The notes under the pieces are model-generated. The model saw only the letters and a program-made list of their open reading frames with translations, made no database searches and had not been told where the DNA came from. A program made the position numbers and the translations under genes. Positions 16,935 to 63,866 of a stretch of DNA of 64,000 bases are shown here, piece after piece. The stretch is from a virus (lineage: Duplodnaviria; Caudoviricetes): IMG/VR virus record IMGVR_UViG_3300028833_005986, positions 32,001 through 96,000 of that record; one strand, given 5' to 3'. Positions within the stretch are counted from its first letter, which is position 1. The number at the start of each line of letters is the position of its first letter.

Positions 16935-17076
16935 TTTTATTACCGACCTTGATATAAAAATTCTGTATAATTATACTTTTTATTTATCAATTATTTAATA
17001 AATTAATATCAAATAAGTAAAATTCAATAATAAGTTTAATCATTCTGTTGAGTAAAAATCTATATAAAAAATACTT

Positions 17077-22616: not shown

Positions 22617-24972
22617 TTAATGCCTCAACGGCTTTAAATTATAATCTAATAAATTCATAGGAAACATTTTTATATTAAACGCTGGTTCTTGCTTATATAA
22701 TCTATTACGTACTTGAGCTTGCCGTAATAACATTGGAGTAGAATCTCTAAAATCATACACAAATGCTCTATTTTTACCTTCGCATTTACGAAGTACACGG
22801 CCAATTCTTTGTAGAGCACGTGTAGATGATTTTCCTCCTCCTGCAAGAATCAGACAATCAGCTGATGGAATATCCAAACCTTCATCTGCAATAGTAGTAC
22901 AAATTAGAATTTTGCATAATTTTTCTCTGAAAGCTTGAATAGTAGCATTTCGTTTTAAAGAAGCATCACTACCTGATAAAAATTCTATTTCACTAACTTT
23001 AGCTGGTAATTTTTTATTACTACCAGTTTTTGATGCTTCAATCATAAATGCTTCATTACTAATATATTGTTGTAATAATCTTAAAATCATTTCACCATGT
23101 TCTATACGCTGAACTAAGATTAATATAGTTGCATTCTTTGCTTTACGCATTTGATAAGCAATTTTTACTATATCCATATTACGTTCACGATTACAAACAA
23201 TAGCTTCACGATATAGATCATTATAATTTTTTTGTGGAAATACTCGTTGATGCTTTACCCAAAAAATATCACAAGGCGTTATATAGCCTTGATTTATTAA
23301 TTCACTAGCTGTAACTTTATTATTAGGCAGCGGCCGGGCACATATAGCATCAATTAATAAATCAGAATTATCTGACCTCCACGGAGTGGCAGAAACTCCA
23401 ATACGATAATAAGCATTTACACACCATTTACTTACATCATTTAAAGTATTACATGGTAAATGATGACATTCATCAAATAATAATAATTTAGTATCTTTTA
23501 CCATTTCTTCTGTAGCTGATTGTGCAGAAAAAACAGTAATATCTTGTACATCTCTTGTTCCACCACCAACTAGACCAATCGGTTCGCCTAAAAATTTTTC
23601 AAATTCACTTTTTAATTGAGTACATAAACTAATTTGATTTGCAAAAATTGAAACTGGCTTTACATTAAATTTTGCAACTAATCCTGCCATCATTAATGTA
23701 TTATGTGTAACAATAAAATCTTTACATATAAATGTATGCTTAGGAGAATCAACAGTAATACATTTCATTTCCTTTTTTATATTTAATTTTTGAATATTAA
23801 CAATTCTTAAAGTATTAATATTTAATATTTGAAATATATTATTACCTTGTTTAGAAACACGATATCCTAATGAATATAATAAAAACTTAACATAATTCAT
23901 TAAATTATCATTATAAATATAAACATGATTTTCATCTATATAATGTGCTTGCATTAATCCTTTTAAAAAAGCTGTTCGTTCATCAACAGATGAATAAAGA
24001 TAATTTTTAATATTATATTGTTTTAATATATCGCGATTATTTTCTCTATTAACTAAAAATCCAAAATCATATGGAGATAATATAAAATATCTTCGATAAT
24101 ATTGAATTGGCTTATTAACTGGAATTTGCATATCTATAACTAAATCTTTACATGCAATAATTTGTTCTTCTGATCCATTAATAACTTTCCATAAATGATC
24201 TTGACAACATTCTATTTTAGTTGCATCAGCAAAAGTAATTTCATATATTTCTTTTTCGCCTTGATAAAATTCTTTTAATACTCTTGTTTGGTTGCCATCT
24301 TCATCATATACTATACTACCAGGATGAATATCTTCTAACTTAACCCACCCGTTGGGTGTAAGAATATTCGTATCTAATGGCATTGCTTTACCCAAATTTA
24401 TTATTATAAATAAAATTTATACTATTTATTAAAATATTTTAAAATAAATAGGTTAGTATATATCTTCTTTATTAAAGTTATAATTAATATACGTTGATAT
24501 ATTAATAAAAATTTTTATTAATATATTCTGATTATTATATTTTTCAGAAATAATTATAATTAAGTAGCAATAAATTACTACTAGTTGCAGCTTGAATAAT
24601 ATCTCTCGGACGACAATTATCTATAATTTTTTGCTGATAATCTCTAACTTTTAATTCTTGAGTTCTTTCTTTATCTAAATATTTAACTAATGAATAATCA
24701 GCATTCGGTTGCCAAGCAACTCTTTTATCAATAATTTTATATTCTTCTTTATTTTCTTCTAAAATTTCAATAATATAATCTAATAATCCGGTATAACTCT
24801 TTTTTGTAATACGATTAAATAAATGTCTAACTTGTGGAATTGAATTGGGATTATATTCTTGTATTTCAAAAGATAATTTATCCCAAATTTTAAATTCTAT
24901 ATTATTACTTGCATATTTTACTTCTACATATACATTATCTATGTGCAATTCAATCAAATTCATCACTTCCAT
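22617..24972 (-). CDS. SF2 (UvsW/ResIII-like) helicase, spliced from exons 24972-24577 and 24392-22617, containing an intein
   Basis: Q motif VRDYQQ; Walker A AATSS|GK[intein]T; DECH, SATP, QRIGR. Confidence 0.92.
23700..24386 (-). mobile_element. class 3-type intein (229 aa, Ala1...His-Asn/Thr) with degenerate LAGLIDADG remnant
   Basis: AMPLDTNILTPNGW N-terminus; DHLW (Trp), MKCITVD (Cys), VTHN|T (Thr) give the WCT signature; eroded YLYSSVDERTAFLKGLM block. Confidence 0.9.
24393..24576 (-). ncRNA. group I-like intron, 184 nt, in helicase Walker A
   Basis: P1 AGTAGT/GCTACT (U.G); R TCAACGTATA, S AAGATATATACT; ends TTTG; joins AGT AGT|GGT AAA. Confidence 0.9.
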
Positions 24973-37267: not shown

Positions 37268-40200
37268 TTAAAATGTTAATCTCCATGTACACTAAATAAT
37301 ATTGGACTATATAATTAATTAATAAAGTTATTATAGTCTCTGAAGAATATACAAATTCTTACTGATTAAATTATTATTAATTACTTTCAGTAATTTAAAC
37401 TTTTTATATAACTACTACATATATTAAATAGTTAATCTAGAACTTGCGTCTTTCTAATATATTATTATTTTAGCATATACTTAAAATATCTTATATATTT
37501 TATATAAGTTTAGATTATATCTTTTATATAATTAAATATAAACTATTATTATAATCGTTGTATATATAAATTATTCTTATATAATTTATATATTACTAAT
37601 TAATATTATTAATAATATTTTTAGTAAATAAATAATTTACGGAACAAAAATCTATTATAAGAATATAAAATTTTTATAATAATAAAAAACATCGTTCCAA
37701 ACTGGAAATACTTTCATTATTTTTTATTTGGACTATATCATATATAAAAATTATTTATATTAATATTACTAGTCTCTGATATGATTAATAATCATATACT
37801 GATTTATTTATTAAAAATAAATATTCCAGTAATTTTATTATTTTATAATCGTAAAGTATTTAAAATATAATCAAAATTTTATCAGCGATTGAACATATAA
37901 CCAGTATCTTTTCCAGCTCCATTTTCCCAGGCAGAAGCATTTCCGCCAAATATAGCCATTTCAGTAATTGGACCTACAGCTTCATCTTCATTAAATGTTG
38001 TTACTAATTTTAGAATATTCGTATTATAATCTTGCTGATAATTTTTAAAATATCTTCTCATCTTAAAAATTCATACCAATTAAGCTCTCTTGTTATTATA
38101 TATGTACTAATATATAATCAAATCAATCTACACTTCGCAGCGTATTCTAAAATCAATTCAATATATACTTATCTCTTATATATATCATAATCAATTCTAT
38201 ATTGATTCTTGAACTCTAATTCGTATTGGCGCTACCAGCGCACCTCTACAGTATAAAGTAGATATATCTTCATATAAATTATGTATATCTCGACTTTCTA
38301 TTAAGTCTTCATAAGATATCTTTCTACTTATAACCTTACCTTTATTTAACTGTTTTATTTTTTTATATTCTTTATTTAATAAATATTTCTTTAATATATT
38401 CAAAGATCCATTCATATCTGCATTTATTAATATACCATTCTTGGACTTATAAAGTCCTCTCTTTATTCTCTTACCTGCAAAGTGTTTCTTTTTTAATTCT
38501 ATCTTATCATTTATTGTTCTTAATACATATCCTAATTTTTCATCTTTTTTATATGATAATATATAATCATTATCTAAGAAAGAAGCTTTAGATGTAAATG
38601 ATTCTTCTTGAAGAACAAATTTAATATTATTCATCTTACATCTATATTCTAAATTATCTTTTATCTTACTAAATGGTATACTAGTAAAGAATTGATTATT
38701 TTTCTTACCTAAATTAGATTTTCTTTGAAAGTCATTGTTCCATCCTAATATAATAATTTTTATATTATTTTGTAAAGAATAATCTATTAATTTTTTACAA
38801 ATCTTATGGATATAATAATTAACTTTATTATTTCTTTTCTTTAATATATTATACATCTTTTTTGTATATCTTAATTTTTTATTAGTATTTTTCTTTTGTA
38901 ATTTACTAATAATTCTATTATATCCTTGATTTATAGATTTCAATTCTTTACCATCTAATATAAAACTATTAATTTTTTTCTTAGAATTATGATTATAATT
39001 AATACAAGTCATTAAATTATTAATGCCTAAATCAATTGATAAATAATTATTATTAACTTGTATATTATCATTAATTTCTATTTCATAGGTATAATGAATT
39101 TCAAAAATTTTACCTTTATATTTAGGAATTACTTGAATATATTTTATTTTTTTATCTTTTAATATAGCAGGTATTTTTATTCTAAATCTATCTTTACTTT
39201 TTAAAGTTAAATTATATTCTTTTAATATTTGATAACTTAGAGGAATAATCCATTCATTATTTTTATTTATATGAATTTTATTAGTTGGAAGTATAAAATA
39301 ATCATTTTTGTCTAAATATTTAGGAATATTACATTTTAAACCTTTTTGTTTTAAAGTGAAGAAAGATTTAAAATTTTCATCTATTATATATAAGATATTA
39401 CAACTACAATTAGCTTCTAATAATTTATAATTAATATTATTTTTAATACTATGATAATTATCTATATAATTTAAATATTTACCAATATTAAAGAAATATT
39501 GTCTAATATTATATAGAGCAGAATTATATAGATTTTTACTATATTTACATAATTTTTTAAATAATATATATAATTGTTTATATTTATATATACTGACTTG
39601 TTGTTTAACAGTTAAATAACATTTTTCTTTTTTATTGATATTATTTTTAAGATTTCTACTAATAATAATAATTCACATCTTTTTAATATTATAAATTTTA
39701 ATAATATTAACAGTTTAAATAACTATTAGTAATAGGATTAGATATTTTAAAACCTATTAAGCTTTGATTTTAATTAAAGCATAGATTATATCATTAATAT
39801 ATAAGATATATAATTAATGATTCTATAGAAATATACAATATTAATCGTTAGATAGATATATATTGATAAAATATATATTTATTATTGATCTATTATAAAA
39901 TTATAAATATTCCAATAAATAATTAAATTATCAAACCATTGTATGGTTCATCGTTTTCATCAACAAAACACCACGAAGTAAATTTCTTACGATATAATTC
40001 ACCTACTAATCTAGTATCAGTTAATTGTGCTTTATGTTCCACCTCTGGATCCATAATATCCCATAATACTGTATTAACTTTATTATTTACACGGTCATAT
40101 GGCTGATCTTCGTGTTCGAGAATACCAACGCCAACAGCTAAAACCTGTAAGCCTGTAATTTTTTGAATATCACTAACAGTAGTACCAGTTTCCGATTCCA

Positions 40201-45649: not shown

Positions 45650-47888
45650 TTATATATAATTATCAATTATATTACCAATATAATAATAATTATTATAATT
45701 TAATAAATAATTTTCACTATATGTATTTTCACGATCAATTGTTGTTTTAAAATCGTTTATATATGTTTCAATGTCATCTATACCATTTATACCTTTCATT
45801 GATTTTTTAATATCATCAATCTGAGATTGTGCTTTATGCTGCTGATAATTAATAAATTTATATTCACTAATCTCATTAACTTGATGTATACGTTTATATT
45901 TATTCTGATAATTTTTAAAATATCTTCTCATCTTAAAAATTCATACCAATTAAGCTCTCTACTTCTCAATATATTAATCACTTAATATATCTAAAATCAA
46001 ATCAATCTACACTTCACAGTATATTCTAAAATCAATTCAATATATACTTATCCTTTATATATATCATAATCAATTTCATATTGATTCTTGAGCTTTAATT
46101 CGTATTGGCGCTACCAGCGCACCTCTACAGTATAAAGTAGATATATCTTCATATAAATTATGTATATCTCGACTTTCTATTAAGTCTTCATAAGATATCT
46201 TTCTACTTACGACCTTACATTTATTTTTATTTAACTGTTTTATTTTTTCATATTCTTTATTTAATAAATATTTCTTTAATATATTCAAAGCACCATTCAT
46301 ATCTGCATTGATTAATATACCATTCTTGGACTTATAAAGTCCTCTCTTCACTCTCTTACCTGTAAAGAGCTTCTTTCTTAATTCTACTTTATTATCTATT
46401 GTTCTTAATACATATCCTAATTTTTCATCTTTCTTATATGATAACATATAATCATTATCTAAAAAAGATGCTTTAGATGTAAATGATTCTTCTTGAAGAA
46501 CAAATTTTATATTATTCATTTTGCATCTATATTCTAAATTATCTTTTATTTTACTAAATGGTATACTAGTAAAAAATTGATTATTTTTTCTACCTAAATT
46601 AGTTTTTCTTTGAAAATCACTATTCCAACCTAATACAATAGTTTTTATATTATTAGCTAAGCAATAATCTATAAGTTTTTTACAGGTCTTATGAATATAA
46701 TAATTAATTTTATTATTTCGCTTCTTTAATATATTATACATCTTTTTTGTGTATCTTAATTTCTTATTAGTATTTAATTTTTGTAATTTACTAATAATTC
46801 TATTATATCCTTGATTTATAGATTTTAATTCTTTACCATCTAATATAAAACTATTAATTTTTTTATTAGAATTATGATTATAACTAATACAAGTAAATAA
46901 ATTATTAATACCTAAATCAATAGCTAAATAATTATTATTAACTTGTATATTATCATTAATTTCTATTTCATATGTATAATGAATTTCGAATATTTTACCT
47001 TTATATTTAGGAATAACTTGAATATATTTTATTTTTTTATCTTTTAATATAGCAGGTATTTTTATTCTAAATCTATCTTTACTTTGCGAAGTTAAGTTAT
47101 ATTCTTTTAATATTTGATAACTTAAAGGAATAATCCATTCGTTATTACTATTAATATGAATTTTATGCGTAGGTAATATAAAATAATCATTTTTATCTAA
47201 ATATTTAGGAATATTGCATTTTAATTTTTTTTGTTTTAAAGCGAAGAAAGATTTAAAATTTTCATCTATTATATGTAAAATATTATTACTACAATTAGCT
47301 TCTAATAATTTATAATTGATATTATTTTTAATATTATGATAATTATTATTATAATTTAAATATTTATTAGTATTAAAGAAATATTGTCTAATATTATATA
47401 AAGCAGAATTATATAAATTTTTACTATATTTACACAATTTTTTGAATAATATATATAATTGTTTATATTTATATTTACTAACTTGTTGTTTAACAGTTAA
47501 ATAAAATTTTTCTTTTTTATTGATATTTTTTTTAAGATTTCTACTAATAATAATCAACTACCTTTTAATATTAATATAATAATATAAATAGATAATGATT
47601 ATTAAAAAGTAATAGGATTAGATATTTTAAAATCTATTATACTTTAATATTTAATTAAAGCATAGATTATATCATTAATATATAAGATATAAGATATATA
47701 ATTAATGATTCTATAATAATATACAATATTAATCGTTAGATAGCTATATATTGATATAATATATAGCTATTATTGATCTATTATGAGATTATAAATATTC
47801 CAATAAATAATTAAATTATTAAACCATTATTAGGTTCAGGCATATTAAATAATAACCATGAAGTATCTGTTATATACATATTCATCAT
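45650..47888 (-). CDS. small tail-fibre-associated protein, spliced from exons 47888-47823 and 45904-45650 (106 aa)
   Basis: AGGAGG RBS; MMNMYITDTSWLLFNMPEPNNG|NKYKRIHQVNE in frame. Confidence 0.7.
45905..47822 (-). mobile_element. IStron-like element 2: group I intron core + tnpB + right end/omegaRNA
   Basis: Same architecture and termini as 38035-39934. Confidence 0.87.
46076..47557 (-). CDS. tnpB: IS607-type TnpB RNA-guided nuclease
   Basis: AIDLG, VLGWN, QEESFTSKASFLD, INADMNG; no C4 zinc finger. Confidence 0.92.
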   Translation of the reverse strand: MIIISRNLKKNINKKEKFYLTVKQQVSKYKYKQLYILFKKLCKYSKNLYNSALYNIRQYFFNTNKYLNYNNNYHNIKNNINYKLLEANCSNNILHIIDENFKSFFALKQKKLKCNIPKYLDKNDYFILPTHKIHINSNNEWIIPLSYQILKEYNLTSQSKDRFRIKIPAILKDKKIKYIQVIPKYKGKIFEIHYTYEIEINDNIQVNNNYLAIDLGINNLFTCISYNHNSNKKINSFILDGKELKSINQGYNRIISKLQKLNTNKKLRYTKKMYNILKKRNNKINYYIHKTCKKLIDYCLANNIKTIVLGWNSDFQRKTNLGRKNNQFFTSIPFSKIKDNLEYRCKMNNIKFVLQEESFTSKASFLDNDYMLSYKKDEKLGYVLRTIDNKVELRKKLFTGKRVKRGLYKSKNGILINADMNGALNILKKYLLNKEYEKIKQLNKNKCKVVSRKISYEDLIESRDIHNLYEDISTLYCRGALVAPIRIKAQESI

Positions 47889-47919: not shown

Positions 47920-50900
47920 TTATGCTTTATAAATGCGATATCTAATAGTAAAAGTATCTGATGGTGTTTCTTTTGCATATAAATAAAAGCATCCCGATGC
48001 TGAAACTGTAAAGTCTGCTAATCCTGCTGCACGAGCTATATTTGTATTACTTGCTAATTCTACTTCAACTACATCATTAGCTGTTAAATTACTAACATTT
48101 ATTTGATATCGCCGTGCATATGATATATTATTAATAGTAGTTGCGGTGGTATACCAAGCACCAGCAGTTGTAGAACTGGTAGTAGTTGTTTTTGCAATAG
48201 TTACTGCCGAAGCATATGTATATTTAGTCATATAAGTAGTATCAATTCGCTGTCCTTTAATATCTTGCAGTGCTTGTAAAGCATTAATACCCATAGGTTG
48301 GAATTCGCCATTTACGTACTGCCAATATTGATTATATAAAAGATTTATATTCATTTGATATGTAGAATATGATCTACCAACATATAAATAGGTATATCCG
48401 TCTTCACTAGTAGGAGCTGTAGTAGTTAAAATATCAGAATGTACAGTAAAAGTATTACCAGATAAAGTACCTTTTAAATATACTGGTTTCTTTTCTGCAA
48501 ATGTTCTTGATGCATTATCAACTATTGTTTGCATATTAGCACCAATACTAATCCAATACAAACTTGTACTCAATGCAGCTGCATCAGCCACCGTTGATCC
48601 ATTAAATAATACTGGATGTCGAATATCAAAAGTATCTCCTGCATTAAGTTCTTTATATGCTATGCCATCAGTTGTACCTACAAATCTTGCAGCAGCAATA
48701 GCACCATCAGCAGTTGCTACTGGATTCGCTATTCTTATTCTATCATAATAGTTGGCATCATAATCAGCAAGTACAAACCAATAAGTACCATTATAAATTA
48801 ATGGAACATAATAATTCGCACTATATTGTGTTGTTAATCGAGTTGTAGAGTATCTATAAATTGCTTTTGCGCCTGTTGTACTTCCACCTGAAAGTGTAAG
48901 ATTTAATGTAGCATTACCAGAACTCGAATATGGTAATTTATAAATAATCATTTTACCAGTATATAGAGCAGCATCTTTTGTTACGCCAGTCCAAGCACCT
49001 GTAACTGCTGTTTGAGTACCTACAATATATTCTATAGTGTGTTCACTAATCTTTTTACCATTAGAATCATTAGTAGCTGTAGCAGCTGTTCCGCTAATAT
49101 TAATCCCCCAAGTACCTGAAGCATCTCCACCTGTTCTACTAGGAACTGATAAAGTTGTTCGCATTGCTGCTACATCTGCATCATCTAATAACGTTCTTGC
49201 TATAGCTGTTAATGGTGTAGTTGCATATGTATTAGAAGCAGTTGTATAAATCATTTGATTTGCAGAAGTAGCTAACCCACTAATAGAAGTTAAAGCTGCA
49301 TGAGCACTTTGTTTAGTAGTAATAGCATTATTTAATGTAGTATATACACTAGCATCTTTATTAATAGCATTAGCAATTTCTTCCAAAGTATCTAATGTAC
49401 CAGGTGCCGCACCAATTAAATTATTAATAGCATTATCGACAAAAGCTGTAGTAGCTACTTGTGTAGTCTTAGTGCCTAATGGAGCTGTTGAAGCTGTTAC
49501 CGTTCCTGTAAATGCAGCACCAGCCAGTTTAGCATAAGTAGTATTAATTGGTTTATTATCGCTGTCATTAGTTGCTTTTGTTGCAGAATCAGCATTACCT
49601 GTTAAATTAGCTTTAATTGTCGCAGGCAATTTAAGAATAATATTAGAAGATCCATCAAAACTAGTAACAGCACCTGTATTAGCAGCAGTAGAATCTTGAA
49701 TACTAATAGATTTTGCAACAGCTAATTTAGTAGCAGTATCAGCATTGCCGTCTAAACTTGCTTTTATAGTCGCTGGTAATCTTATATTTAATACAGAAGT
49801 ATTACTTCCATCAAAACTAATAGCCGTACCAGTATTCGCTCCAGAACTATCTTGAATATTAATAGATCTTGCTGTAGCTAATTTAGTAGCTGTAGTTGCA
49901 TTACCAGTTATACTACCAGTAAAAGATTGTGCAATTACTCCCGCAGGAAATGTAACGTTATTATTTATATCCCAAGTATAGAATCTGTTATGACTAACTA
50001 TATTGTGATCAGAAAACCACCAGTTACCACCATAAAAACGAATATCATTTAATGATGGCGAACCATAACTAGCATTTACTGTTGTTTGTTTAAAAGTCAT
50101 ACGCAATGCATACATATTTCCTGATTGCGAAGCAGATTGATTAAAACCTTGTACTTGATTGAAATAAATTATATTATTTCCTGACCATCCGCTTAATGGC
50201 TTCTCAGTAAATAAATTAATCCAAGTATCAGTATCTTTATCTGCAAATTTTTGCCAATCAAGCGTTACATTCCAATTATTACCATTAGTGGAGCCCCAAA
50301 TATATAAAGCATTTACACTAACATATCTACCTGAAGGCATAATAGTAATACGTAGCTGATTATTAAGACTATTATCTGCTTTTACAGATGCTTTACCTAA
50401 GAACATGTTAGTAGTACGTAATTCCATAAAGATAGCCTTTTTTTGATCATCAGTTAAACCATAATCAATCCATGTTTTGCCGCCATCGCGTGAATATTCT
50501 ACAATAGTTGTCGCGCCACTAATACCAAATGTTTTATTAGATGCCCATGCTCCTACGCGATTACCAGTAATCCAGTCTAAATTACCTGCTATACTTTCTG
50601 TTGTGGTATTAATTGATGATGGAGTAATATTACCAGATATATTAGTCGCTTGAATATTAGTGGCTGATAGTGTAGATGTAGCGGGATTAACTTTTACTCC
50701 AGAGCCAAAAATTGCTGTATTCGCACCACGATTTGTTGATGCATTTTCTGTAGATACTAATAATACTGGGTATGTTGCATCCGCAGTAGATACATTTTGC
50801 GTCATTAGTGTATCAGTATTAGTATCGCCGTATAATGTAGTAGTTGTACCATTTATAGTAATTTTACCTACTTCAGTACCAGAAGTCTTTGTTTGTGTAA

Positions 50901-53900
50901 AACTAACAGCATCTGCAGAAGCAGTAATACCATCTAATTTAGATTTATCTGCGGCAGACATTAATCCAGCAATACTAGTTGTTGCTTCATGCTCAGTACC
51001 AGTAGAATTAATAGTAATTACACCATTAGAAGCCGTAACTGTAGTAGAACCAGTACCTTTAATATTAATGGCATTTCGTACAGTAGAATCATCAATAACA
51101 TTTAAATGCACATTACCATTAGTAGCAACTGCATTAGCTGTTCCGTTATTAGCACTAGCTGCTACTAAATGTGTGGTATAATGCGTATTAGTATCTGTAG
51201 TTGGAGGCGTATAGCCTAATGCAGTGGTAACATTATCTTTAGTTAGACTAATCGTACCTGAAGAATTAGTAATATTACTACCTATTTTAACTAATCCTAA
51301 ATTACTACCAGACGCAGCAGAATATGTCGTATCTTGTGTAGTAATAGTACCAGTATCTCCATCACCTTTAGTATAAGTGATAGTCTTACCAGATACAGAT
51401 AAGTCTTTAATATAAGTATCAACGATATCTTGATTTTTACTATCTTTAGTAGCAGAAGTAGCCGCACCTGATAAGTTACCTGTAAAAGTAGTAGCTGTTA
51501 CTTTAGTTGCTAATAATTCACCAGTTGATGGATTGATTTTTATATCTTTACCAAATTGTGCAGCATTAGCCGAAATATTACTTGTCGCATTAGCTGTAGC
51601 CGCAATTAATACTGGATATGTTGAATTTACAGTAGAAATATTTTGTGCGACTTTAGCATCCGTATTTGCTGCGGCAGCTGCAGCTTTAGCAAAAGCTGTT
51701 GTAGCAATTTGTGTATCATTAGTAGCGATTGCCGCTGTAGGAGCAGTTGGCGTTCCAGTTAATTCAGGCGATGCTAATGGTGCATAAGTAGTATTAATTT
51801 GATTACCGACAGAATCACTAGTCGCTTTTGTGGCTAGACCACTGAAATTTTTAGCCGTAATAGTACCTGCCGACGGATTAATAGTAATTGCAGAATTAAA
51901 ATAAGTACCACTAGTAGTATCTGTTACCGCGGTGCTATTTTTAAATAATACTGGATATGCAGAATTAACAATTGATATAGCAGTTTGTGTTACATTTTGA
52001 TCCTCAGTAGTAATAGTTCCGGTAGTATTATTACCTTTAGTATATGTAATAGTTTTACCTGAAATTGCTAGGCCTACAATAGCATTAGCTTTAGCTACAT
52101 AAGTATCGGCGATATTATGCCCACCACTATCATTTGTTGCATTAGTTGCAGAAGTCGCATTACCAGATAAATTACCAGAAAAAGTAGTAGCATATAAAGT
52201 GCCAGTAGATGGATTAATTTTAATAGTTTTACCAAAAATTGCAGCTTTTGCACCTTGATCTGTTGTAGCATTAGGTGTAGAAGTAGCTAATATTGGATAT
52301 GTAGAATTAGTAGTAGATACACTTTGTGTTACAAATGTATTTGTATCAGGTGTAGTAATAGTACCTGTAGTTCCATTACCTTTAGTATAAGTAATAGTCT
52401 GTCCAGAAATAGCTAATCCTGTAATAGCATTAGCTTTAGTTTCATAAGTAGTAGCAATATTATGTCCTGCACTATCTTCAATAGCTGCATCTGCAGTGCC
52501 TTCTAAATCGCCAACAAATTTAGATGCAATAATACTTTTATTGTTTGGATTAATTTTAATATCTTTACTAAAAATTGCAGTTGTAGTTGCATTAGTACTT
52601 GCATTTACTACTGACGATGCTAATAATGGATAAGTAGAATTAGTAGTCGAAACGCTTTGTTGCATTTTTTCATCTTTAGTAGTTAAAGTGCCAGTTGTAT
52701 TATCTCCGCGTTTAAAAGTTAATGTCTGATTTGATAGAGTTAAATCAACAATTCCTTCAGTCTTTTTAACATAAGTCGTGTTAATCGGTTTATCATCACT
52801 ATCGTTTGTCGCTTTTGTAGCAGCTGTGGCAGTAGAAGCATTACCGTTTAAAGTAGCTTTAATAGTAGAAGGTAATTTAATATATAATGTAGAAGTATTG
52901 CTACCATCAAATTTAATTTCTGTACCAATATTAGTACCATCAGCATCACTAATATTAATAGATCTCTTATTAGCTAATTTAGTTGCAGTAGAAGCATTAC
53001 CTTCAATAGTAGCTGTAATCGTACCAGGTAATTTAATGGTACCAGCTGAAGACCCATTAAAATTAAATGCAGTACCAGTATGTGATCCGTCACTATCACT
53101 TATATTTATATTTCTTCCTGTTTCTAAAGTAGTAGCAGTAGCAGCATTACCGGTACATTTTGCTGCAGTATCTGCCGTAGTTGCTGATGCTGCTTTTTCA
53201 CTTTTACCTAAAGCATCAATAGTTGTACGCATATCAGAAGCTGTAGCATCATCTAATAAATTCCTTGCTAATGCAGTTAATGGCGCAGTTTTATATGTAT
53301 TAGAAGCTGTCGTATAAATCATTTGATTTGCAGACGTAGTTAAATTACTTATAGAAGTTAATGCTGCATGGGCTGATTGTTTTGTAGTAATTGCATTATT
53401 TAATGTATTATATACATCTTGATCATTATTGATTGCATCTGCTAATTCTTTTAATGTATCTAATTCTGCTGGAGCTGCTCCAATTAAATTTTTAATAGCA
53501 TTATCTACAAAAGCTGTAGTAGCTACTTGTGTAGTCTTAGTACCCAATGTAGCTGTAGGAGCAGTTGGTGTTCCAGTTAATTCTGGTGAAGCTAATGGTG
53601 CATAAGTAGTATTAATTTGATTACCAGAAGAATCATTAGTAGCATTAGTAGCAGTATCAGCATTACCTGTTAAATTAGCTTTTATAGTACTAGGTAATTT
53701 AATAGTACCATTTGTCGATCCGTCAAACTCAATAGCAGTACCGGCATTAGTATTATCAGCATCACTAATATTAATAGATCTTTTATTAGTTAATTTAATA
53801 GCTTTATCTGCTGTACCAGTTAAATCAGCTTTTATAGTACCAGGTAATGCAATAGTTACTGCTTGACTACCATTAAAACTAGTACCTGCTCCAATATTTG

Positions 53901-54777
53901 TTGCATCCGCATCACTTATTTTTAAAGTACGAGAATTTTTTAATGTAGTGGCAGTAGCGGCATTACCAGTAGTATCTATACTAGCTGTACCACTTAATTT
54001 AGTAGCATCTAATGACGTAACAGGAATAGTAATATCTAAAGTACCATTAAATTCTGTAGCTGTACCAGTAGCGGCGCCAGAAAGTGCTATTGTTTTTTTA
54101 TTAGCTAATTTTGTAGCTGAATCTGCATTACCAGTTAAATCAGCTTTAATAGTAGCTGGTAATTTTAAAGTAACATCTGCAGAACCATTAAAAGTACTAG
54201 CAGTACCAGCATTTGTGCTATCATTATCATTAATAACAAAATTTCTAATATTCTTTAATACAGTGGCAGTAGAAGCATTACCATCAATTTCAGCTGTAAT
54301 GGTTTTTGGTAATGTAATAGTACCATTAGCAGAACCGTCAAAATTAATAGCTGTACCTGTATGCGTTTCGCTATTATCTTGAATATTAATAGACCTGCTA
54401 TTAGTTAATGTTGTAGCAGTAGTAGCGTTGCCAGTTAAATCAGCTTTAATAGTAGAAGGTAATTTAAGATTAATATTTGATCCGCCGTTAAAACTAGTAG
54501 CAACGCCTGTATTTGTTTTTGATGCGTCGCTAATAGTAATATCTCTACTAACACTTAAATTACTTGCAGCTGTAGCTGTACCATCTGCGGGAAGAAATGA
54601 ACCTACGATAGAATTATTATAAAATTCAGAAATTTTGCTATCAATTCGATTATCTGTAGCATTTGCAAAATCTGTTATTTGTGAACTTTCAGTTTCTGGA
54701 TGTAATACTTTATATATAGCTTTATTATTCAAATCGCGATCAGCAATTACATGTATTTTTCCTTTAATTTCTGCCAA
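47920..54777 (-). CDS. long tail fibre protein (2285 aa, repetitive)
   Basis: Many GNA.TA.KL...R.I.I.D...G..FDGS.N..I.LP.TI.A repeats; PTAPTA..T..TQ.ATTAF and LDTL.E.A.AI fibre motifs. Confidence 0.9.
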   Translation of the reverse strand: MAEIKGKIHVIADRDLNNKAIYKVLHPETESSQITDFANATDNRIDSKISEFYNNSIVGSFLPADGTATAASNLSVSRDITISDASKTNTGVATSFNGGSNINLKLPSTIKADLTGNATTATTLTNSRSINIQDNSETHTGTAINFDGSANGTITLPKTITAEIDGNASTATVLKNIRNFVINDNDSTNAGTASTFNGSADVTLKLPATIKADLTGNADSATKLANKKTIALSGAATGTATEFNGTLDITIPVTSLDATKLSGTASIDTTGNAATATTLKNSRTLKISDADATNIGAGTSFNGSQAVTIALPGTIKADLTGTADKAIKLTNKRSINISDADNTNAGTAIEFDGSTNGTIKLPSTIKANLTGNADTATNATNDSSGNQINTTYAPLASPELTGTPTAPTATLGTKTTQVATTAFVDNAIKNLIGAAPAELDTLKELADAINNDQDVYNTLNNAITTKQSAHAALTSISNLTTSANQMIYTTASNTYKTAPLTALARNLLDDATASDMRTTIDALGKSEKAASATTADTAAKCTGNAATATTLETGRNINISDSDGSHTGTAFNFNGSSAGTIKLPGTITATIEGNASTATKLANKRSINISDADGTNIGTEIKFDGSNTSTLYIKLPSTIKATLNGNASTATAATKATNDSDDKPINTTYVKKTEGIVDLTLSNQTLTFKRGDNTTGTLTTKDEKMQQSVSTTNSTYPLLASSVVNASTNATTTAIFSKDIKINPNNKSIIASKFVGDLEGTADAAIEDSAGHNIATTYETKANAITGLAISGQTITYTKGNGTTGTITTPDTNTFVTQSVSTTNSTYPILATSTPNATTDQGAKAAIFGKTIKINPSTGTLYATTFSGNLSGNATSATNATNDSGGHNIADTYVAKANAIVGLAISGKTITYTKGNNTTGTITTEDQNVTQTAISIVNSAYPVLFKNSTAVTDTTSGTYFNSAITINPSAGTITAKNFSGLATKATSDSVGNQINTTYAPLASPELTGTPTAPTAAIATNDTQIATTAFAKAAAAAANTDAKVAQNISTVNSTYPVLIAATANATSNISANAAQFGKDIKINPSTGELLATKVTATTFTGNLSGAATSATKDSKNQDIVDTYIKDLSVSGKTITYTKGDGDTGTITTQDTTYSAASGSNLGLVKIGSNITNSSGTISLTKDNVTTALGYTPPTTDTNTHYTTHLVAASANNGTANAVATNGNVHLNVIDDSTVRNAINIKGTGSTTVTASNGVITINSTGTEHEATTSIAGLMSAADKSKLDGITASADAVSFTQTKTSGTEVGKITINGTTTTLYGDTNTDTLMTQNVSTADATYPVLLVSTENASTNRGANTAIFGSGVKVNPATSTLSATNIQATNISGNITPSSINTTTESIAGNLDWITGNRVGAWASNKTFGISGATTIVEYSRDGGKTWIDYGLTDDQKKAIFMELRTTNMFLGKASVKADNSLNNQLRITIMPSGRYVSVNALYIWGSTNGNNWNVTLDWQKFADKDTDTWINLFTEKPLSGWSGNNIIYFNQVQGFNQSASQSGNMYALRMTFKQTTVNASYGSPSLNDIRFYGGNWWFSDHNIVSHNRFYTWDINNNVTFPAGVIAQSFTGSITGNATTATKLATARSINIQDSSGANTGTAISFDGSNTSVLNIRLPATIKASLDGNADTATKLAVAKSISIQDSTAANTGAVTSFDGSSNIILKLPATIKANLTGNADSATKATNDSDNKPINTTYAKLAGAAFTGTVTASTAPLGTKTTQVATTAFVDNAINNLIGAAPGTLDTLEEIANAINKDASVYTTLNNAITTKQSAHAALTSISGLATSANQMIYTTASNTYATTPLTAIARTLLDDADVAAMRTTLSVPSRTGGDASGTWGINISGTAATATNDSNGKKISEHTIEYIVGTQTAVTGAWTGVTKDAALYTGKMIIYKLPYSSSGNATLNLTLSGGSTTGAKAIYRYSTTRLTTQYSANYYVPLIYNGTYWFVLADYDANYYDRIRIANPVATADGAIAAARFVGTTDGIAYKELNAGDTFDIRHPVLFNGSTVADAAALSTSLYWISIGANMQTIVDNASRTFAEKKPVYLKGTLSGNTFTVHSDILTTTAPTSEDGYTYLYVGRSYSTYQMNINLLYNQYWQYVNGEFQPMGINALQALQDIKGQRIDTTYMTKYTYASAVTIAKTTTTSSTTAGAWYTTATTINNISYARRYQINVSNLTANDVVEVELASNTNIARAAGLADFTVSASGCFYLYAKETPSDTFTIRYRIYKA

Positions 54778-56391: not shown

Positions 56392-56619
56392 ATGTATATT
56401 AATCCTCAGCATTGGTATGAAAAGCAAGAAGCTGAAAATATGAAGCAAAAAATTGATAAATATTTAATTATTAAAAATAATGTAGGTTATATACATAATA
56501 GATTATTATCAATACCTATTACAAAATTTGCTATTTATTTAGGTAAAAATATTAATTTACAAAAACAAATTAATGCATTACTTAAAGAAGACTATCAATA
56601 TTTATCTAATATTGTTTAA
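56392..56619 (+). CDS. hypothetical protein
   Basis: ORF track. Confidence 0.45.
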   Translation: MYINPQHWYEKQEAENMKQKIDKYLIIKNNVGYIHNRLLSIPITKFAIYLGKNINLQKQINALLKEDYQYLSNIV

Positions 56620-57930: not shown

Positions 57931-58929
57931 TTATTTTTTTATAGCTAATCGTTTAAGCTTTCCACCATGTGCTCCATCTGGTGCTAAATATACTTTTTTA
58001 ATTCTTGAATCATTTTTTAATATATTAACTAATTCATTAATTGTATATCCAATTTGTCCTTGATAATCAATAAATACACATGGTTTATACCAATATGCTC
58101 GACCATAATGATAATTGTCATAATTACAATTTTCAGTATTCAATTCATGATGAAAATCTCCATAATTACCAATTAATACATGATCTTTATTATTTTTATC
58201 TCGATAAATAACTACAGGTCCATCGCGTAAATTAGTATTATGTGGATCATAATTAATCTCTCCATAATATTGACCAATTTTATCATCATTATCTAATTCT
58301 AATAAATATTTATTTTTATCTTTTATATGTAATTGATCATATATATCTATAACATAATTTTCTAATTCATTAAAATCATTTTCTAGTACTAAATTAATAG
58401 TTGGCGATAATGATAAAATATTACTTAAAGATAAATTAAAATTTTCTTTACAAAATATATCATCTACAATAAATGCATTAATTAAATTTATTAATTTATT
58501 TCTTATATTTGCTTTAATTTTAATATTATTAATAATTTTAGGTATTAATTGATATATATGTCCACAAATTAATTTACTAAGTCGAGAATATATTTGTTCT
58601 AAATTAATATCTTTACTTCTTTCATTAATTATTTTTTGTATTATATTTTTAAATTGTTTTTTATTATCTTCAACGAAAGATAATAAAATATTTTCAAGAT
58701 TATATTTATATTGTTTATTATTTCTATATTTTTGAATATCAATATTTAATAATTCAGCAATATCAAAATCTTGATTATCTAAATATTCTTTAATACAATT
58801 AACATAATGTTCATTAATTAAATTATAAATATTATCATTTAATTTAAAATCAATACCGAATTCAAAATATAACTCAAAATATTCTTTAAAGGATTTAAAT
58901 AATTTTTCTTTATCCATATTTTTATTCAT
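57931..58929 (-). CDS. hypothetical protein, paralogue of 31433-32455
   Basis: LRDGPVVI..DHVLIGNYGDFH...GGKLKRLAIKK. Confidence 0.75.
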   Translation of the reverse strand: MNKNMDKEKLFKSFKEYFELYFEFGIDFKLNDNIYNLINEHYVNCIKEYLDNQDFDIAELLNIDIQKYRNNKQYKYNLENILLSFVEDNKKQFKNIIQKIINERSKDINLEQIYSRLSKLICGHIYQLIPKIINNIKIKANIRNKLINLINAFIVDDIFCKENFNLSLSNILSLSPTINLVLENDFNELENYVIDIYDQLHIKDKNKYLLELDNDDKIGQYYGEINYDPHNTNLRDGPVVIYRDKNNKDHVLIGNYGDFHHELNTENCNYDNYHYGRAYWYKPCVFIDYQGQIGYTINELVNILKNDSRIKKVYLAPDGAHGGKLKRLAIKK

Positions 58930-58954
58930 TAAAAAATAATTATTAATTTTATAT

Positions 58955-59190
58955 ATAGCAAAATCACGTCAAGCTAAAATTTTAAAAAAGATAATAGCTT
59001 ACGCGCCGACTAATTTTTATTTTTTAAAAATTAACTAGCAATTAATTTACAATATATAGTAATTAATTTATACATAGCGCGATTGATATTCAACGTACCC
59101 AGGATACACATTTCCAGCTATCCACATATCCCAACGGCTTGACTATCCTTTACGTGGGTCATCGCAACCTGCGTGTATCATATGCTCTTC
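58955..59190 (-). ncRNA. unassigned GC-rich structured RNA (~240 nt)
   Basis: Non-coding GC island. Minus-strand stems GATACACG/TGTGTATC, CAGG/CCTG, AATCGCG/CGTGATT, GCGCT/GGCGC, TAAGCTA/TAGCTTG; G.U wobbles favour the minus strand. Confidence 0.6.
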
Positions 59191-59394
59191 TATATATATA
59201 TTAATAATAATATATTTTAAATTAATATTTAATTAATTATCAAATGGAAAAAATTAATTTAAAAAACTCTCTGTATATAAAATAGCATAAATTTGCTATT
59301 TTATTTCGTCTTAAATTGACAATACAATTAGCTTAAAGAATGTTTTTAGAAGAAATTTTTTAGAAGAATATTTTTATATAGAGGTGAATAAATA

Positions 59395-60929
59395 ATGGCT
59401 ATTATTTTAGAAGCTAAAGATGATCTTAATCAGTTTATATTAACAGATTATGAACGCAAACTTATTTATCGCCTCCGCGTTTTACTAAAAGATTTACCAG
59501 ATGATGTTCTTAGAACATTAAATACGTTAGTCGAACAAAATCGCGGAATTAATATTATTAATACTAAACTACATTTTAGAAATTATATTAATTTTTTTAT
59601 GCCGCGAAAAATTATAAAAATTTCAAAGAAATACTAATATATTATTTGAATTATTAATAAAATTATTTAATTAATAATTTCTATATAAGCAACGTATATT
59701 ATTTATAATTAATAAAAAAGAAATATACTAATCTTTTTATATAAAAAGAAAATATATAATAAAATATTTATAAATATAAATGGAACGATGGACAGATCAA
59801 ATGCTAATAAATTACATATATCAATCTTTAGGATATATTAATGCAGCGCCTTTACAAACAGGATATGATTTAACAAATATACCTACAGCATGGGAAAGCC
59901 CACTATTAACCGGTGCAATGGTATTCTCACTTTTAGCAGAAGCTATATTACAGACTGGAAACATCATATAAAATAAATATATTGCTTGTATAGCAATATT
60001 AGTTTTAAATTATTCTCTAGTCAAATAAATTAAAATAATTTCGAGAAATTATTCAATAAATTTAATTCGAAAATATATTATATATATTATATAATAATTG
60101 CAACGCATAATTGAATTTAATATAAACATAAAAAATTATGCTAATCTAAAAAGATAATTTTTAGATAATAATTAATATAATTATTATTTAATACAAAAAG
60201 AAACATTTTCCTATTCAGATAATGGAATCAGTCAAAAATTAAAGGCTGAAATAAAATTTAATTAATTACGAGAATAATATATCTATATTTATTCGTAACT
60301 TATATAAGTTCAAAGACTATATATTAAAATTATTAAAATAAAAAATAGTCTAATTATATAATGCTTTCAATTTCTAATGCTGGACAGTACCAATCTCTAG
60401 CGAACGGATTACTATCCGGCTTTGAGCAACAAATAAAATCTTTAAAAGCATATACAAATATGCTTATACAATTAATTAATTTAATGAAAACACATATATT
60501 ATGTATATATTAAAATAATATTTATTTTTAAATAAATCTTATTTCAGAGCATATAAATATTAATTTATAATAAATGATTTATGCCATTCTATATTAAAAT
60601 TTATAGAATTATATAATAATAAATATATTTTCTTCTTAATTCAAAAAATTTGAGGCCAAATCCGGCTGGAATTTTTCATAAGTTCTTGTATAAATATATT
60701 ATTGCTAAAAATATATATTATATATCAATTAGCATTTATTTAAATATAAATATATTATTTATAAATCAACGACTATATAATATTTATTAATAAAAATATA
60801 GTCTTATTTTAGCATTTGTTAAAAATATTAAATTTATAAATTTAATAAAAAATTCAAAATTGATATGGAGGAATGAATTCAGGAGTCCGAATTCGCTCAT
60901 ATTCCCCGCGAATGTGGGTTTATAGATAA
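59395..60929 (+). CDS. neck/head-completion-like protein, 6 exons (59395-59547, 59783-59960, 60201-60232, 60364-60453, 60653-60672, 60863-60929; 179 aa)
   Basis: Spliced: ..RLRVLLKD..NRG|ERWTDQML..INAAP..LQTG(K/E)TFSYSDNGIS|LSISNAGQYQ..KAY|RPNPAGI|YGGMNSGVRIRSYSPRMWVYR*. Functional label is inferred from the FSYSDNGISL-type motif. Confidence 0.78.
59548..59782 (+). ncRNA. group I-like intron, 235 nt
   Basis: P1 TCGCGG-A / G-CCGCGA (59601-59607); R CAACGTATA, S AATATACT; ends AATG. Confidence 0.82.
59961..60200 (+). ncRNA. group I-like intron, 240 nt (ends uncertain by 1 nt)
   Basis: P1 GACTGG/CTAGTC; R CAACGCATA, S TTATGCT. Confidence 0.78.
60233..60363 (+). ncRNA. group I-like intron, 131 nt
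   Basis: P1 TCAGT/GCTGA (U.G); R TCAAAGACTA, S AATAGTCT; ends AATG. Confidence 0.85.
60454..60652 (+). ncRNA. group I-like intron, ~199 nt
   Basis: P1 AAGCATAT/ATATGCTT; R TCAGAGCATA, S TTATGCC; ends TTTG. Confidence 0.78.
60673..60862 (+). ncRNA. group I-like intron, 190 nt
   Basis: P1 GGAAT/GTTCT (U.G); R TCAACGACTA, S ATATAGTCT; ends ATTG. Confidence 0.85.
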
Positions 60930-61085
60930 GTATATCAAGCATTTTATAATTTTTATAAAAATGAATATAATAATAATTTTTATAAAAATTATATTTATTC
61001 GTGCAAAAAAAAAAAAAGTGACTCTAGAAAATTGAAATAAAATTATAAAATTATATTATTTTTATCATGTATAAAAAACTTATAC

Positions 61086-63866
61086 ATGATTTTTTTATTA
61101 AAAATTTTTTATGAAATTGAGGTAAAAATAATTATGAGTATGACTTTAGAAGAAAAAAGACAATTAGCTATTCAAAGTTTAAAAGAAAAAATGATTAATA
61201 AAATGAAAAAAATAAAATCATCAGATGATACTATAGAGAATATACTCTATAATATATCCGATGAAGCTGAAAGAAATTTATTACGTATATTCAATTATTG
61301 CCACAGGCAATTTGAATATCAATGTAAATATTTCGAATTAAATAATACTATATTTATTCCTAATATTTACTGTAATAAAAATAAAACATTTTATATATTA
61401 AATTTTATTAATCAATATACCGGTTCAGATAGAAAAAAAATAATAAATGAATTTATTAATTTATATCCAAATGAAAAAATAAAACTAATATCATTAAAAC
61501 AATATAGAAAAATAATAAAATGGTTTCGAGATGATATTTTATTTGAAAGTAGTAAATATAAAATTAATTTTAGCTTAGATAATAAAAAAAGAATAAAATG
61601 TAATTATTGCGGAACAAAATTTACATCTAACAATAAAAAAGATAAATATTGTTCTGAAGAATGTGCTATAAATGCACATAATAATAAAACAAATAAATCT
61701 ATAATACGTCATTATTATTCAGGATATTATATGGATATACATCATTATGTTCGATCTGGATGGGAACATAATATAGCACGAATATTACAATGGAGTCAAT
61801 TAAATTATGATTATGAATGCCATACATTCAAATTAAGTAATGGTACTACATATACTCCAGATTTTTATATATATGCTGATAATACATTTTATGAAGTAAA
61901 GGGCGAAATGCGCACAAACACATTAACAAAATATAATATGTTTAAAGAAGAATACCCAGAAAAAAAATTAATAATAATAGACGGAAAGATATATCAAGAC
62001 TTATTAGAGCAGTATACCAATATTGATTTTAACCAATATCAGTATAATCAATATCAAACATTACCATATACTATTAATAATATTAATCAATATAGAGTTT
62101 CTAATATAAAATATGAAATGTGGGAATTAGATTATAAATTTTATACAAATAAGCGCTATAATAATAGTAAATCAATTGCTGCAGATGAAAATATTAATAA
62201 TTTTATTAATATAAAAGAATTAGCAAATAATAATTATTTATTAAAAAACATAGCAATTAAAACTATACGTTATATGCATATTAATAATGAATTTTTTATT
62301 TTTAAGGATGATATACAGATTAATTCTACTAATAAACAAGCTACTATTATTCAGCATAATACTTCTTTACCAGAAATATTTCATAAATGTTTACAAAAAA
62401 TCTTACCTAATAAATATATTGTTATTTGTCAAAATTGTAAAAAACAATATATAAGTAATTATATCGCATATAATAAACCTCAAATTTGCCGTGATTGCTA
62501 TCAAATAATATATAATAATACAGATATTAAACGTCAGCAAGCTAATAAAATGCTTATTAAAAATTTAAAGCATATACACTGGCATATTAATGATAATCAT
62601 ATACAATTTAATAATGAAGCAGAAAATAATTTTGCTTTAATCTTAGAATATTTAAATAATGAATATACATATGAAGATGATTATCGATATATTGACAATT
62701 ATCAATATATTTATCAATTTAATTTTTTTAGAAATAAAAATAATACAATTTATATTTTAGAATTTTGTTTAACTTACACGATTAGACTAAGAGTAAAGTC
62801 ATTTTTAAATGAATATAATGAAAAAGTACATATTATTACGCGCAAAAAATACGAAAGAATCTTAAAATTTTTTAATACAAAAATTAATTTTACTTATAAT
62901 CAATATCCTTTACAATATTATGTATTACATATTTGTCCTATTTGTAATAATAATTTTTATGCTAATATACAACAAATTTATTGTTCTAGTCAATGTAAAC
63001 ATAAAAGCATGAATAAACAATATAAAGAAATAAGAACTAATTTATATCAATATAAGCTTACAGATGAACAATTAAATAATTTACAATGTACTAATTTACA
63101 AGCAACAAACAAAAAATTATTAAAGCAAATGCATAATTTAAATTCTAATAATATTGATATAAATAATATTAATTTACCCAATGAAGAAATTAATTTTATT
63201 AAGGTATTACAATATTTAAAATTAGAATTTTATTATAAAACTGAATATAAAAAATTATCTACTGGAAAAATTTTAATTATGAAATTTTATTTACCAGTAG
63301 ATAATCACTATTATTTTTTAACTTTTGTCTATAATCGTAATTATATTAATAAAATAAAACAATATATAATTGAAAATGAAAATAATAATTGTATATTAAT
63401 TGATAAATATATATATGAACAATTATTACAACAATATAAAAATAAAATTGATTTTATACAAACTACTATTTGTACATTAAATAATAATCAAATAGTAAAT
63501 AAATGTAAATATTGTGGTAAAGAATTATCTACTGTAAAAAAACAGCATTTATATTGTTCTAGAAAATGTTATGAACTGGCTAAACGAAAATATATTAAAA
63601 AATCTTGTATCAATTGTAATAATAAATTTTTAGTATTAGATGATGATATTAATAATCAATATTTTTGTTCTTCAAAATGTGGCGAAGAATATAAACAAAA
63701 AATACAAAATAATAATAAATTATCAGTAATTACTGAAAATAATATAATTAAAAAATTTTATAATACTCAATGCGAGTATTGTCATAAACAGCATTATTAT
63801 TTTGGTACAAGAAAGCACAAATATTGCTCTAATATTTGTAAAAGAAAAACAAATGCTAATAAATAA
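61086..63866 (+). CDS. multidomain protein with four PD-(D/E)XK endonuclease-like repeats (one intact) and several C..C..YCS..C zinc ribbons; start probably 61134
   Basis: RSGWE..IAR.L...YE...F...YTPDFY...EVKG plus three degenerate copies; GAGGT RBS before ATG 61134. Confidence 0.75.
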   Translation: MIFLLKIFYEIEVKIIMSMTLEEKRQLAIQSLKEKMINKMKKIKSSDDTIENILYNISDEAERNLLRIFNYCHRQFEYQCKYFELNNTIFIPNIYCNKNKTFYILNFINQYTGSDRKKIINEFINLYPNEKIKLISLKQYRKIIKWFRDDILFESSKYKINFSLDNKKRIKCNYCGTKFTSNNKKDKYCSEECAINAHNNKTNKSIIRHYYSGYYMDIHHYVRSGWEHNIARILQWSQLNYDYECHTFKLSNGTTYTPDFYIYADNTFYEVKGEMRTNTLTKYNMFKEEYPEKKLIIIDGKIYQDLLEQYTNIDFNQYQYNQYQTLPYTINNINQYRVSNIKYEMWELDYKFYTNKRYNNSKSIAADENINNFINIKELANNNYLLKNIAIKTIRYMHINNEFFIFKDDIQINSTNKQATIIQHNTSLPEIFHKCLQKILPNKYIVICQNCKKQYISNYIAYNKPQICRDCYQIIYNNTDIKRQQANKMLIKNLKHIHWHINDNHIQFNNEAENNFALILEYLNNEYTYEDDYRYIDNYQYIYQFNFFRNKNNTIYILEFCLTYTIRLRVKSFLNEYNEKVHIITRKKYERILKFFNTKINFTYNQYPLQYYVLHICPICNNNFYANIQQIYCSSQCKHKSMNKQYKEIRTNLYQYKLTDEQLNNLQCTNLQATNKKLLKQMHNLNSNNIDINNINLPNEEINFIKVLQYLKLEFYYKTEYKKLSTGKILIMKFYLPVDNHYYFLTFVYNRNYINKIKQYIIENENNNCILIDKYIYEQLLQQYKNKIDFIQTTICTLNNNQIVNKCKYCGKELSTVKKQHLYCSRKCYELAKRKYIKKSCINCNNKFLVLDDDINNQYFCSSKCGEEYKQKIQNNNKLSVITENNIIKKFYNTQCEYCHKQHYYFGTRKHKYCSNICKRKTNANK

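Follow-up and report, generated by a model that had tools for sequence, protein, structure and literature searches.

Twort orf142, a small late phage gene described by Landthaler and Shub in 1999, reportedly contains three self-splicing group IA2 introns, which the group I model RF00028 places at 16606-17506. In crAss-like phages belonging to the Zeta group, the open reading frame (ORF) of the major capsid protein (MCP) lies in five fragments and up to 14 introns are present per genome (PMC7886860), while Jug jumbo gut phage genomes have about 18.5 small group I introns each (mean size of about 206 nucleotides, nt) that break up essential genes, about half of them confirmed by metatranscriptome reads (PMC12880540). 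Here we analysed a 64,000-nt stretch of viral DNA (hereafter the window), covering bases 32001-96000 of the 166,990-bp IMG/VR record IMGVR_UViG_3300028833_005986, with a GC content of about 20%. At 59395-60929 (+), one gene related to gp165 of Bacillus phage G is very probably divided into six exons by five ORF-less, miniaturised introns of group I type, which would be removed at the RNA level. We infer splicing itself, autocatalysis and the exact splice nucleotides from the sequence.

The coding sequence and its homologues

The best homologue of the locus is gp165 (AEO93425.1), the 179-aa product of an uninterrupted 540-nt gene in the 497-kb genome of phage G. Alignment of gp165 onto the window by tblastn recovered all six pieces in order, on the + strand and with zero indels, exons 1 and 2 matching abutting phage G coordinates (99258-99410 and 99411-99587). 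The pieces, and the motif that precedes them, are as follows.

59382-59387 (+): Shine-Dalgarno-like GAGGTG, 7 nt 5' of the ATG, read from the sequence
59395-59547 (+): exon 1, 153 nt, residues 1-51; 55% identity to gp165 1-51 and 86-96% to relatives P0001-P0004
59783-59959 (+): exon 2, 177 nt (178 if A59960 is included), residues 52-110; 46% identity to gp165 52-110
60200-60232 (+): exon 3, a 33-nt micro-exon encoding ETFSYSDNGIS (32 nt under the alternative boundary of the second intron); 10 of 11 residues as in gp165 111-121
60364-60453 (+): exon 4, 90 nt, residues 122-151; aligns to gp165 and P0004
60650-60669 (+): exon 5, a 20-nt micro-exon encoding LRPNPA plus 2 nt of a Gly codon; GC 0.60; aligns to gp165 MRPTAAG
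60863-60929 (+): exon 6, 67 nt, residues 158 (third base) to 179 plus TAA; VRIRSYSPRMWVYR is 79% identical to the gp165 C-terminus

Once joined, these exons form a 540-nt frame that ends in TAA and encodes a 179-aa product, with zero frameshifts or stops in any exon and an exon GC content of 0.30-0.60 versus 0.10-0.15 for the introns. A preliminary description of the locus had proposed exons of 153, 178, 32, 90, 20 and 67 nt, recognised as GC-rich coding islands joining in one frame to a clean stop. The mapping on gp165 bears out these sizes, the sole difference being a single nt, which fits on either side of the second intron, and the islands, frame and stop stand as described.

The spliced product aligned over 179/179 residues with its relatives, with identities of 53% to gp165, 88% to L010, 76% to P0004 and 73% to the interrupted orthologue L046 presented below. 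Searches with single exons recovered uninterrupted metagenomic relatives of 177-182 aa (P0004, P0006-P0009, P0011, P0013 and P0017). The lack of a full-length homologue had been put forward as what would speak against such a gene; gp165, P0004, P0006, P0007, P0008, P0011, P0013 and P0017 match the spliced product end to end. The closest protein, L010, is devoid of all five window introns and shows one 484-nt interruption after V145. In the comparison with L010, synonymous sites are saturated, the ratio of non-synonymous to synonymous rates (dN/dS) is about 0.05 and, per exon block, the proportion of differences is 0.66-0.79 at synonymous sites (pS) and 0.04-0.18 at non-synonymous sites (pN). 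Purifying selection in every exon block indicates that the six pieces are kept as one functional coding sequence.

Gene callers would list three separate ORFs here, of 80, 63 and 54 aa, as would be seen if independent small ORFs or chance similarities were separated by ordinary AT-rich intergenic spacers. Such a reading is hardly credible. Relatives encode the same residues contiguously: those of exon 3 are continuous with the flanking exons in L010 and L016, and the LRPNPAG of the exon 5 region is unchanged in L010. Chance similarity is excluded by the 88% identity to L010 despite saturated synonymous divergence, the micro-exons encoding conserved residues.

Separate small ORFs were ruled out, since the six pieces are collinear with one 179-aa protein without indels and the 20- and 33-nt pieces have no start codon. 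Stops interrupt every frame of the intervening sequences, which rules out an intein, and no notable ORF is present; read-through under an alternative genetic code was likewise ruled out, as the homologues lack the inserted residues.

Group I-type cores of the intervening sequences

A sense-strand group I core was detected in 5/5 intervening sequences (131-240 nt, 10-15% GC, ORF-less), its elements following the canonical group I order, AAUU-P4 ... P4'-AA-P6 hairpin-(U)CAACG-P7-P3'-P8-AGAU-P7'. Matches were scored with a covariance model, R2, rebuilt from the 12 matches of a first model, R1, which was itself made from six copies in the genome; I1, I2 and I4 were absent from the R2 training set. 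The five introns are the following.

59548-59782 (+): I1, 235 nt, GC 0.10; guide GCCGCGA at 59601-59607; core at 59647-59734; P7 GUAUAU/AUAUAC; terminal G; R2 E 0.044 (local search)
59960-60199 (+): I2, 240 nt (alternatively 59961-60200, with a terminal G); guide UUCUCUAGUC at 60013-60022; core at 60035-60147; P7 GCAUA/UAUGC; R2 E 2e-4
60233-60363 (+): I3, 131 nt; guide AAAGGCUGA at 60241-60249 (P1 and P10); core at 60262-60356; U.G pair at the 5' splice site, terminal G; R2 58 bits
60454-60649 (+): I4, 196 nt; guide CAAAUAUGCUU at 60455-60465; AGAG-type R box; P7-P8 half at 60538-60590; R2 E 0.022, 3' half only
60670-60862 (+): I5, 193 nt, codon phase 2; core at 60698-60809; R box CAACGACUAU, S box AUAUAGUCU; terminal G; R2 49.8 bits

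With filters off, the five best R2 matches across 58900-61200 were I3, I5, I2, I4 and I1, all on the + strand. Genome-wide, R2 gave 14 distinct matches at E < 0.05, 14/14 of which lie on the locally dominant coding strand. The three P7 types announced by the preliminary description were recovered, GUAUAU/AUAUAC in I1, GCAUA/UAUGC in I2 and I4, and GACUAU/AUAGUC in I3 and I5.

The conserved boxes and the pairing pattern both point to group I ancestry. Each intervening sequence has a sense-strand motif pair corresponding to the classical R and S boxes. The motifs CAACGACUAU and GAUAUAGUCU recur unchanged as the R and S boxes in introns of Twort orf142 and T4, and I5, like many other copies in the genome, reads CAACGACUAU ... 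(G)AUAUAGUCU, the very decamers present in the Twort and T4 introns. P4 varies among copies yet stays paired (ACUAA/UUAGU, ACUGA/UCAGU, ACGAG/UUCGU, GCUAA/UUAGC). Pairing holds in 95% of helix cells over 11 distinct genome copies, versus 33-48% in slid controls, and 14/23 pairs show compensatory changes, although these counts come from an alignment fitted to the structure of R2, which favours that structure; covariation is present in P4, P6, P7 and P8. I4 belongs to a second sub-family, characterised by its AGAG-type R box, two genome paralogues of which show covariation in P4 (UUAAU/AUUAA versus UUGAU/AUCAA) and P6. The minimum-energy fold of I3 recovers P1, P4-P5 and P7 (z = -2.2).

A motif scan of IMG/VR led to two unrelated contigs, L051 and L052, where five of six R2 matches overlap RF00028 matches, at 89.9, 70.5, 66.3, 57.1 and 29.4 bits. 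This coincidence indicates that the intron family of the window is homologous to bona fide group I introns. On these contigs, three or four group I introns each are clustered within about 2 kb (L051:1444-3375 and L052:6783-8932), found by both RF00028 and R2. Scanning with a simple R/S pattern gave too much noise (122 matches versus about 78 in Markov shuffles) and a looser P4+P7 scan was uninformative.

Guide sequences, putative splice sites and insertion history

Potential guides were evaluated by pairing each ligated junction, taken as 14 nt (9 nt from the 5' exon, 5 nt from the 3' exon), with the 110 nt at the start of the corresponding intron. The junction-guide duplexes of I1-I4 range from -10.7 to -15.3 kcal/mol, versus -2.8 to -6.6 kcal/mol for wrong-intron controls, with individual values of -11.4 for I1 (3 of 1000 shuffles as good), -15.3 for I2 (0), -10.7 for I3 (6) and -13.4 for I4 (0). 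Pairing runs unbroken across the junction, with P1 and P10 on one guide, over 10 bp in I2, 9 bp in I3 and 11 bp in I4, whose guide CAAAUAUGCUU is the perfect complement of the joined exon ends AAGCAUAU/UUG (the slash marking the exon boundary).

The same gene was recovered in seven exons on a Logan contig from another sample (L046:1976-3854, SRR27373470; GC 0.20), and it is also carried by L047. The exons of L046 (153, 156, 21, 37, 106, 46 and 24 nt) encode 180 aa, and each of its six gaps contains an R2 match (E 9e-5 to 0.9). Its introns are located between residues 51 and 52, 103 and 104, and 110 and 111, at about 122/123, in codon 158 (phase 2) and between residues 173 and 174; the sites of I1, I2 and I5 are therefore common to both genes, a fourth is 4 nt or less away from that of I3, and the I4 site is empty. 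I1 is 72% identical to L046-a and I2 77% identical to L046-c, the P7 type being common to each pair with one compensatory P7 change in I2/L046-c, and the L046 intron at the I5 site shows the same phase and the same P7 type. In the first two pairs, the guides track the exon ends (UCGCGG/CCGCGA in I1 versus AAGAGG/CCUCUU in L046-a; GACUGGA/UCUAGUC in I2 versus AGCGGGA/UCCCGCU in L046-c). This co-variation of exon and guide is the strongest evidence here that P1 probably forms under selection, which would mean that the RNA is spliced.

We therefore favour a scheme in which the gene would be transcribed as one precursor mRNA from upstream of 59395, each intron adopting a pared-down IA2-like core (P3-P4-P5-P6-P7-P8 followed by P9) in which almost all pairs are A-U. 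A guide near the intron 5' end would define the junction by pairing with the upstream exon at its end (P1) and, for I2, I3 and I4, with the downstream exon at its start as well (P10). RNA-level removal of the five introns would join the six exons into the 540-nt frame.

Beyond the bias in the covariation counts noted above, several results weigh against this scheme. RF00028 (gathering score of 50 bits) found nothing in the window and nothing at E <= 10 in 58900-61200, and its best genome-wide match was 17 bits, with only partial matches of 6-17 bits to the S-box end of other copies. As a positive control, the same model recovered Twort and T4 introns at 23-105 bits overall, including the three of Twort orf142 at 64-101 bits and T4 introns at 36-105 bits; it misses the window copies because these are too A/U-rich and too pared down. 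Reciprocally, R2 gave only chance-level matches on the genomes of Twort, T4 and phage G, the best Twort match lying inside a coding ORF. With its 131 nt, I3 is also far below the Azoarcus intron, the classic small self-splicer of about 200 nt. The guide test was not significant for I5 (171 of 1000 shuffles as good), where only a short local hairpin is present at the junction and the exon before it ends in G. Finally, the homology-inferred splice sites are mostly non-canonical (I1, I2, I4 and I5), the canonical U.G pair and terminal G being found together only in I3 among the five window introns. I1 shows A.G at the cleavage site, though with a terminal G, its L046 orthologue having C.A; I2 shows A-U or A.C at the 5' site, and its last nucleotide would be A with Glu at residue 111 and G only with Lys; I4 shows a U-A pair and ends in U, without a terminal G, if Leu152 is kept. 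Terminal G is otherwise present in I3 and I5.

Two of these junctions, G(K/E)TF and AY(L)RP, had been left by the preliminary description to an alignment of homologues, which settles them in part. Leu152 is supported by the AYLRP, QFLRP and QYLRP of relatives and by P10 (CAA/UUG) within the 11-nt guide. At residue 111, Glu is present in most homologues and is also favoured by the 10-bp P1+P10 pairing, a terminal G requires Lys, and the same ambiguity recurs in L046-c. The U.G pair is present at the 5' splice site of L046 introns b, d and f, and in L046-d a 1-nt shift of the junction gave both canonical features together with a better protein match, which indicates that homology-inferred junctions can err by a nucleotide. 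As only I3 obeys both the U.G and the terminal-G rules, some of the introns may require a helper protein or rely on relaxed splice-site recognition.

The same irregularities could be those of a decaying gene, in which the elements, though of group I descent, would include at least one, likeliest I4 or I5, that is splicing-dead, so that no full-length protein is made. This would suit I4, with its U-A in place of U.G, no terminal G fitting the homologous junction and an R2 match to half of the model, as well as I5, without a significant guide, and introns that are all very short and 10-15% GC. However, exons 5 and 6, beyond I4, are constrained in the comparison with L010 (pS 0.74 versus pN 0.12), the exons are intact throughout, the guide of I4 fits the ligated junction exactly, and L046, whose gene is otherwise intact, retains a same-type intron at the I5 site. 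Decay consequently appears unlikely to us.

Still less likely is a mechanism other than splicing, whether a programmed excision from the DNA or a ribosomal bypass of the T4 gene 60 kind, which several junctions without canonical group I splice-site nucleotides could suggest. The T4 gene 60 bypass spans 50 nt, whereas the gaps measure 131-240 nt with stops in all frames, and a direct reading of I1 and I2 shows no matching take-off and landing codons that would keep the frame. Reading of the junctions revealed no terminal repeats suggestive of an excision element. Moreover, covarying sense-strand RNA helices and guides that track exon changes are expected only from an RNA-level mechanism.

As to the history of these putatively spliced introns, the preliminary description took their three P7 types to imply independent insertions. 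This is plausible, since the best non-self match of each window intron lies elsewhere in the genome and not in the same gene (I1 matches 56400-56537 (-) at 74%, I4 matches 159156-159313 (+) at 74%), and site occupancy differs among L010, L046 and the window. It must be qualified by the three sites held in common with L046 and the fourth within 4 nt, these common sites indicating that most insertions are old, or maintained by site-specific homing.

The single-exon searches also returned ORF calls shorter than full length and breaking at recurrent positions, namely after G51 (P0012 starts with MERW, like the window ORF of exon 2), near 103, after G110 (P0015, P0018, P0024 and probably P0023), after FSY(S)116, after V145 and near 165. 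Over P0001-P0024, the ORF breaks cluster at about ten positions (51, ~66, ~103, 110, 116, 121/122, 145, 151, 158, ~165 and 173). The gp165-family gene thus appears to be a recurrent intron target.

It is possible, though on balance doubtful, that these elements represent a distinct ultra-compact lineage derived from group I (131-240 nt, almost pure A/U outside the guide, P4 and P7), which would have dispensed with the U.G pair and lost the terminal G in some copies. A continuous P1+P10 guide would set the junctions, probably with a phage- or host-encoded factor, and the gp165-family gene would be favoured as an insertion target, at 10 or more different sites among relatives.

Genomic surroundings and comparison with known systems

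The completeness of the record was estimated at 34% by CheckV, which is consistent with a phage G-like jumbo phage. The window ORFs are tightly packed in a phage-like manner and include a NAD-dependent ligase, DnaB-like and SF2 helicases and HNH-type endonuclease modules. Over the window, the tRNA scan and Rfam at gathering thresholds each returned zero matches; blastn of 59000-61100 against GenBank phages matched nothing, and exon 2 used as a query against viral contigs retrieved no relative. A scan for promoters and terminators was uninformative given the AT-rich DNA.

For the 179-aa protein, AlphaFold predicted four helices with a mean predicted local distance difference test (pLDDT) score of 59. 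Foldseek against PDB gave nothing at E <= 0.001, a PDB profile search nothing credible, and Pfam and PHROGs only sub-threshold matches. Weak similarities to adaptors or connectors (a PHROG connector family at E 0.009; the Sf6 gp7 tail adaptor at rank 6, E 0.94; the SU10 and PhiTE adaptors at 0.88-0.89 in Atlas, below 0.9) provide a lead that the gp165-family protein may be a head-tail adaptor or connector.

Just 5' of the five-intron gene, a GC-rich non-coding island (58955-59190) separates divergent gene blocks and has no Rfam match at E <= 10. Directly 3' of the gene, a 926-aa ORF (61086-63866 (+)) contains repeated HNH-like and other endonuclease-like PHROG modules with many Cys-rich motifs, and might act on the introns as a mobility factor or free-standing homing endonuclease; in L010, the homologous gene is likewise followed by a long ORF (1186 aa).

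Elsewhere in the window, three R2 cores lie inside 540 nt at 37299-37836 (-) (37299-37397, 37507-37631 and 37725-37836), in what looks like a second multi-intron, micro-exon gene. A helicase ORF at 22617-24554 (-) shows a weak Intein_splicing match and PHROG matches typical of intein-bearing genes, and is adjoined by an R2 core at 24450-24554. A 493-aa transposase/TnpB-like ORF (46076-47810 (-); phrog_506, E 3e-26) is adjoined by a weak intron-core match at 47694-47810, an arrangement that fits the IStron-like elements remarked on in the preliminary description. The 2285-aa ORF at 47920-54777 (-) stands out by its GC content (0.33-0.35 versus about 20% for the genome), its sole Pfam match being a marginal DM13, barely above the cut-off.

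Among described systems, Twort orf142 resembles the window gene in being a small phage gene with several ORF-less group I introns, short exons between them and identical R and S motifs (CAACGACUAU, GAUAUAGUCU). However, its three introns measure 225-287 nt and are seen by RF00028, whereas the window gene has five in 540 coding nt, of 131-240 nt and 10-15% GC, invisible to RF00028 and with mostly non-canonical splice sites. The Zeta crAss-like phages share a high density of group I introns in a phage genome, but there the introns were recognised through encoded endonuclease domains and the gene is far longer, in contrast to five ORF-less mini-introns within 179 codons of a phage G-like genome. 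The Jug phages are likewise jumbo phages with small group I introns that split genes; standard group I covariance models sufficed to find these, in genes of two or three pieces, whereas the window introns escape RF00028 and leave one small gene in six pieces. As for phage G, it provides a full-length homologue, gp165, but this gene has no interruption, and a search of the whole phage G genome with RF00028 reveals no group I intron.

What is unusual here is the combination of five to six introns per 540 nt, a size down to 131 nt, a GC content of 10-15%, invisibility to RF00028 and an apparent relaxation of splice rules. If confirmed by RNA data, this would be the densest intron packing that we found reported for a phage protein gene (five here and six in the relative for about 540 coding nt, with exons of 20-36 nt). 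A literature search on the smallest known group I intron size returned nothing usable. Natural group I cores of as little as 131 nt, apparently tolerant of splice sites without U.G or G, would, if real, help to define the minimal ribozyme and the choice of splice sites, and the intron sets of the window and L046 form a ready comparative system. As ORF callers and Rfam miss both the gene and its introns, annotation of AT-rich jumbo-phage genomes is probably incomplete. Phage genes with several introns, and phage introns of miniature size, were known before, and the window gene is an extreme, record-density and unusually degenerate case of them.

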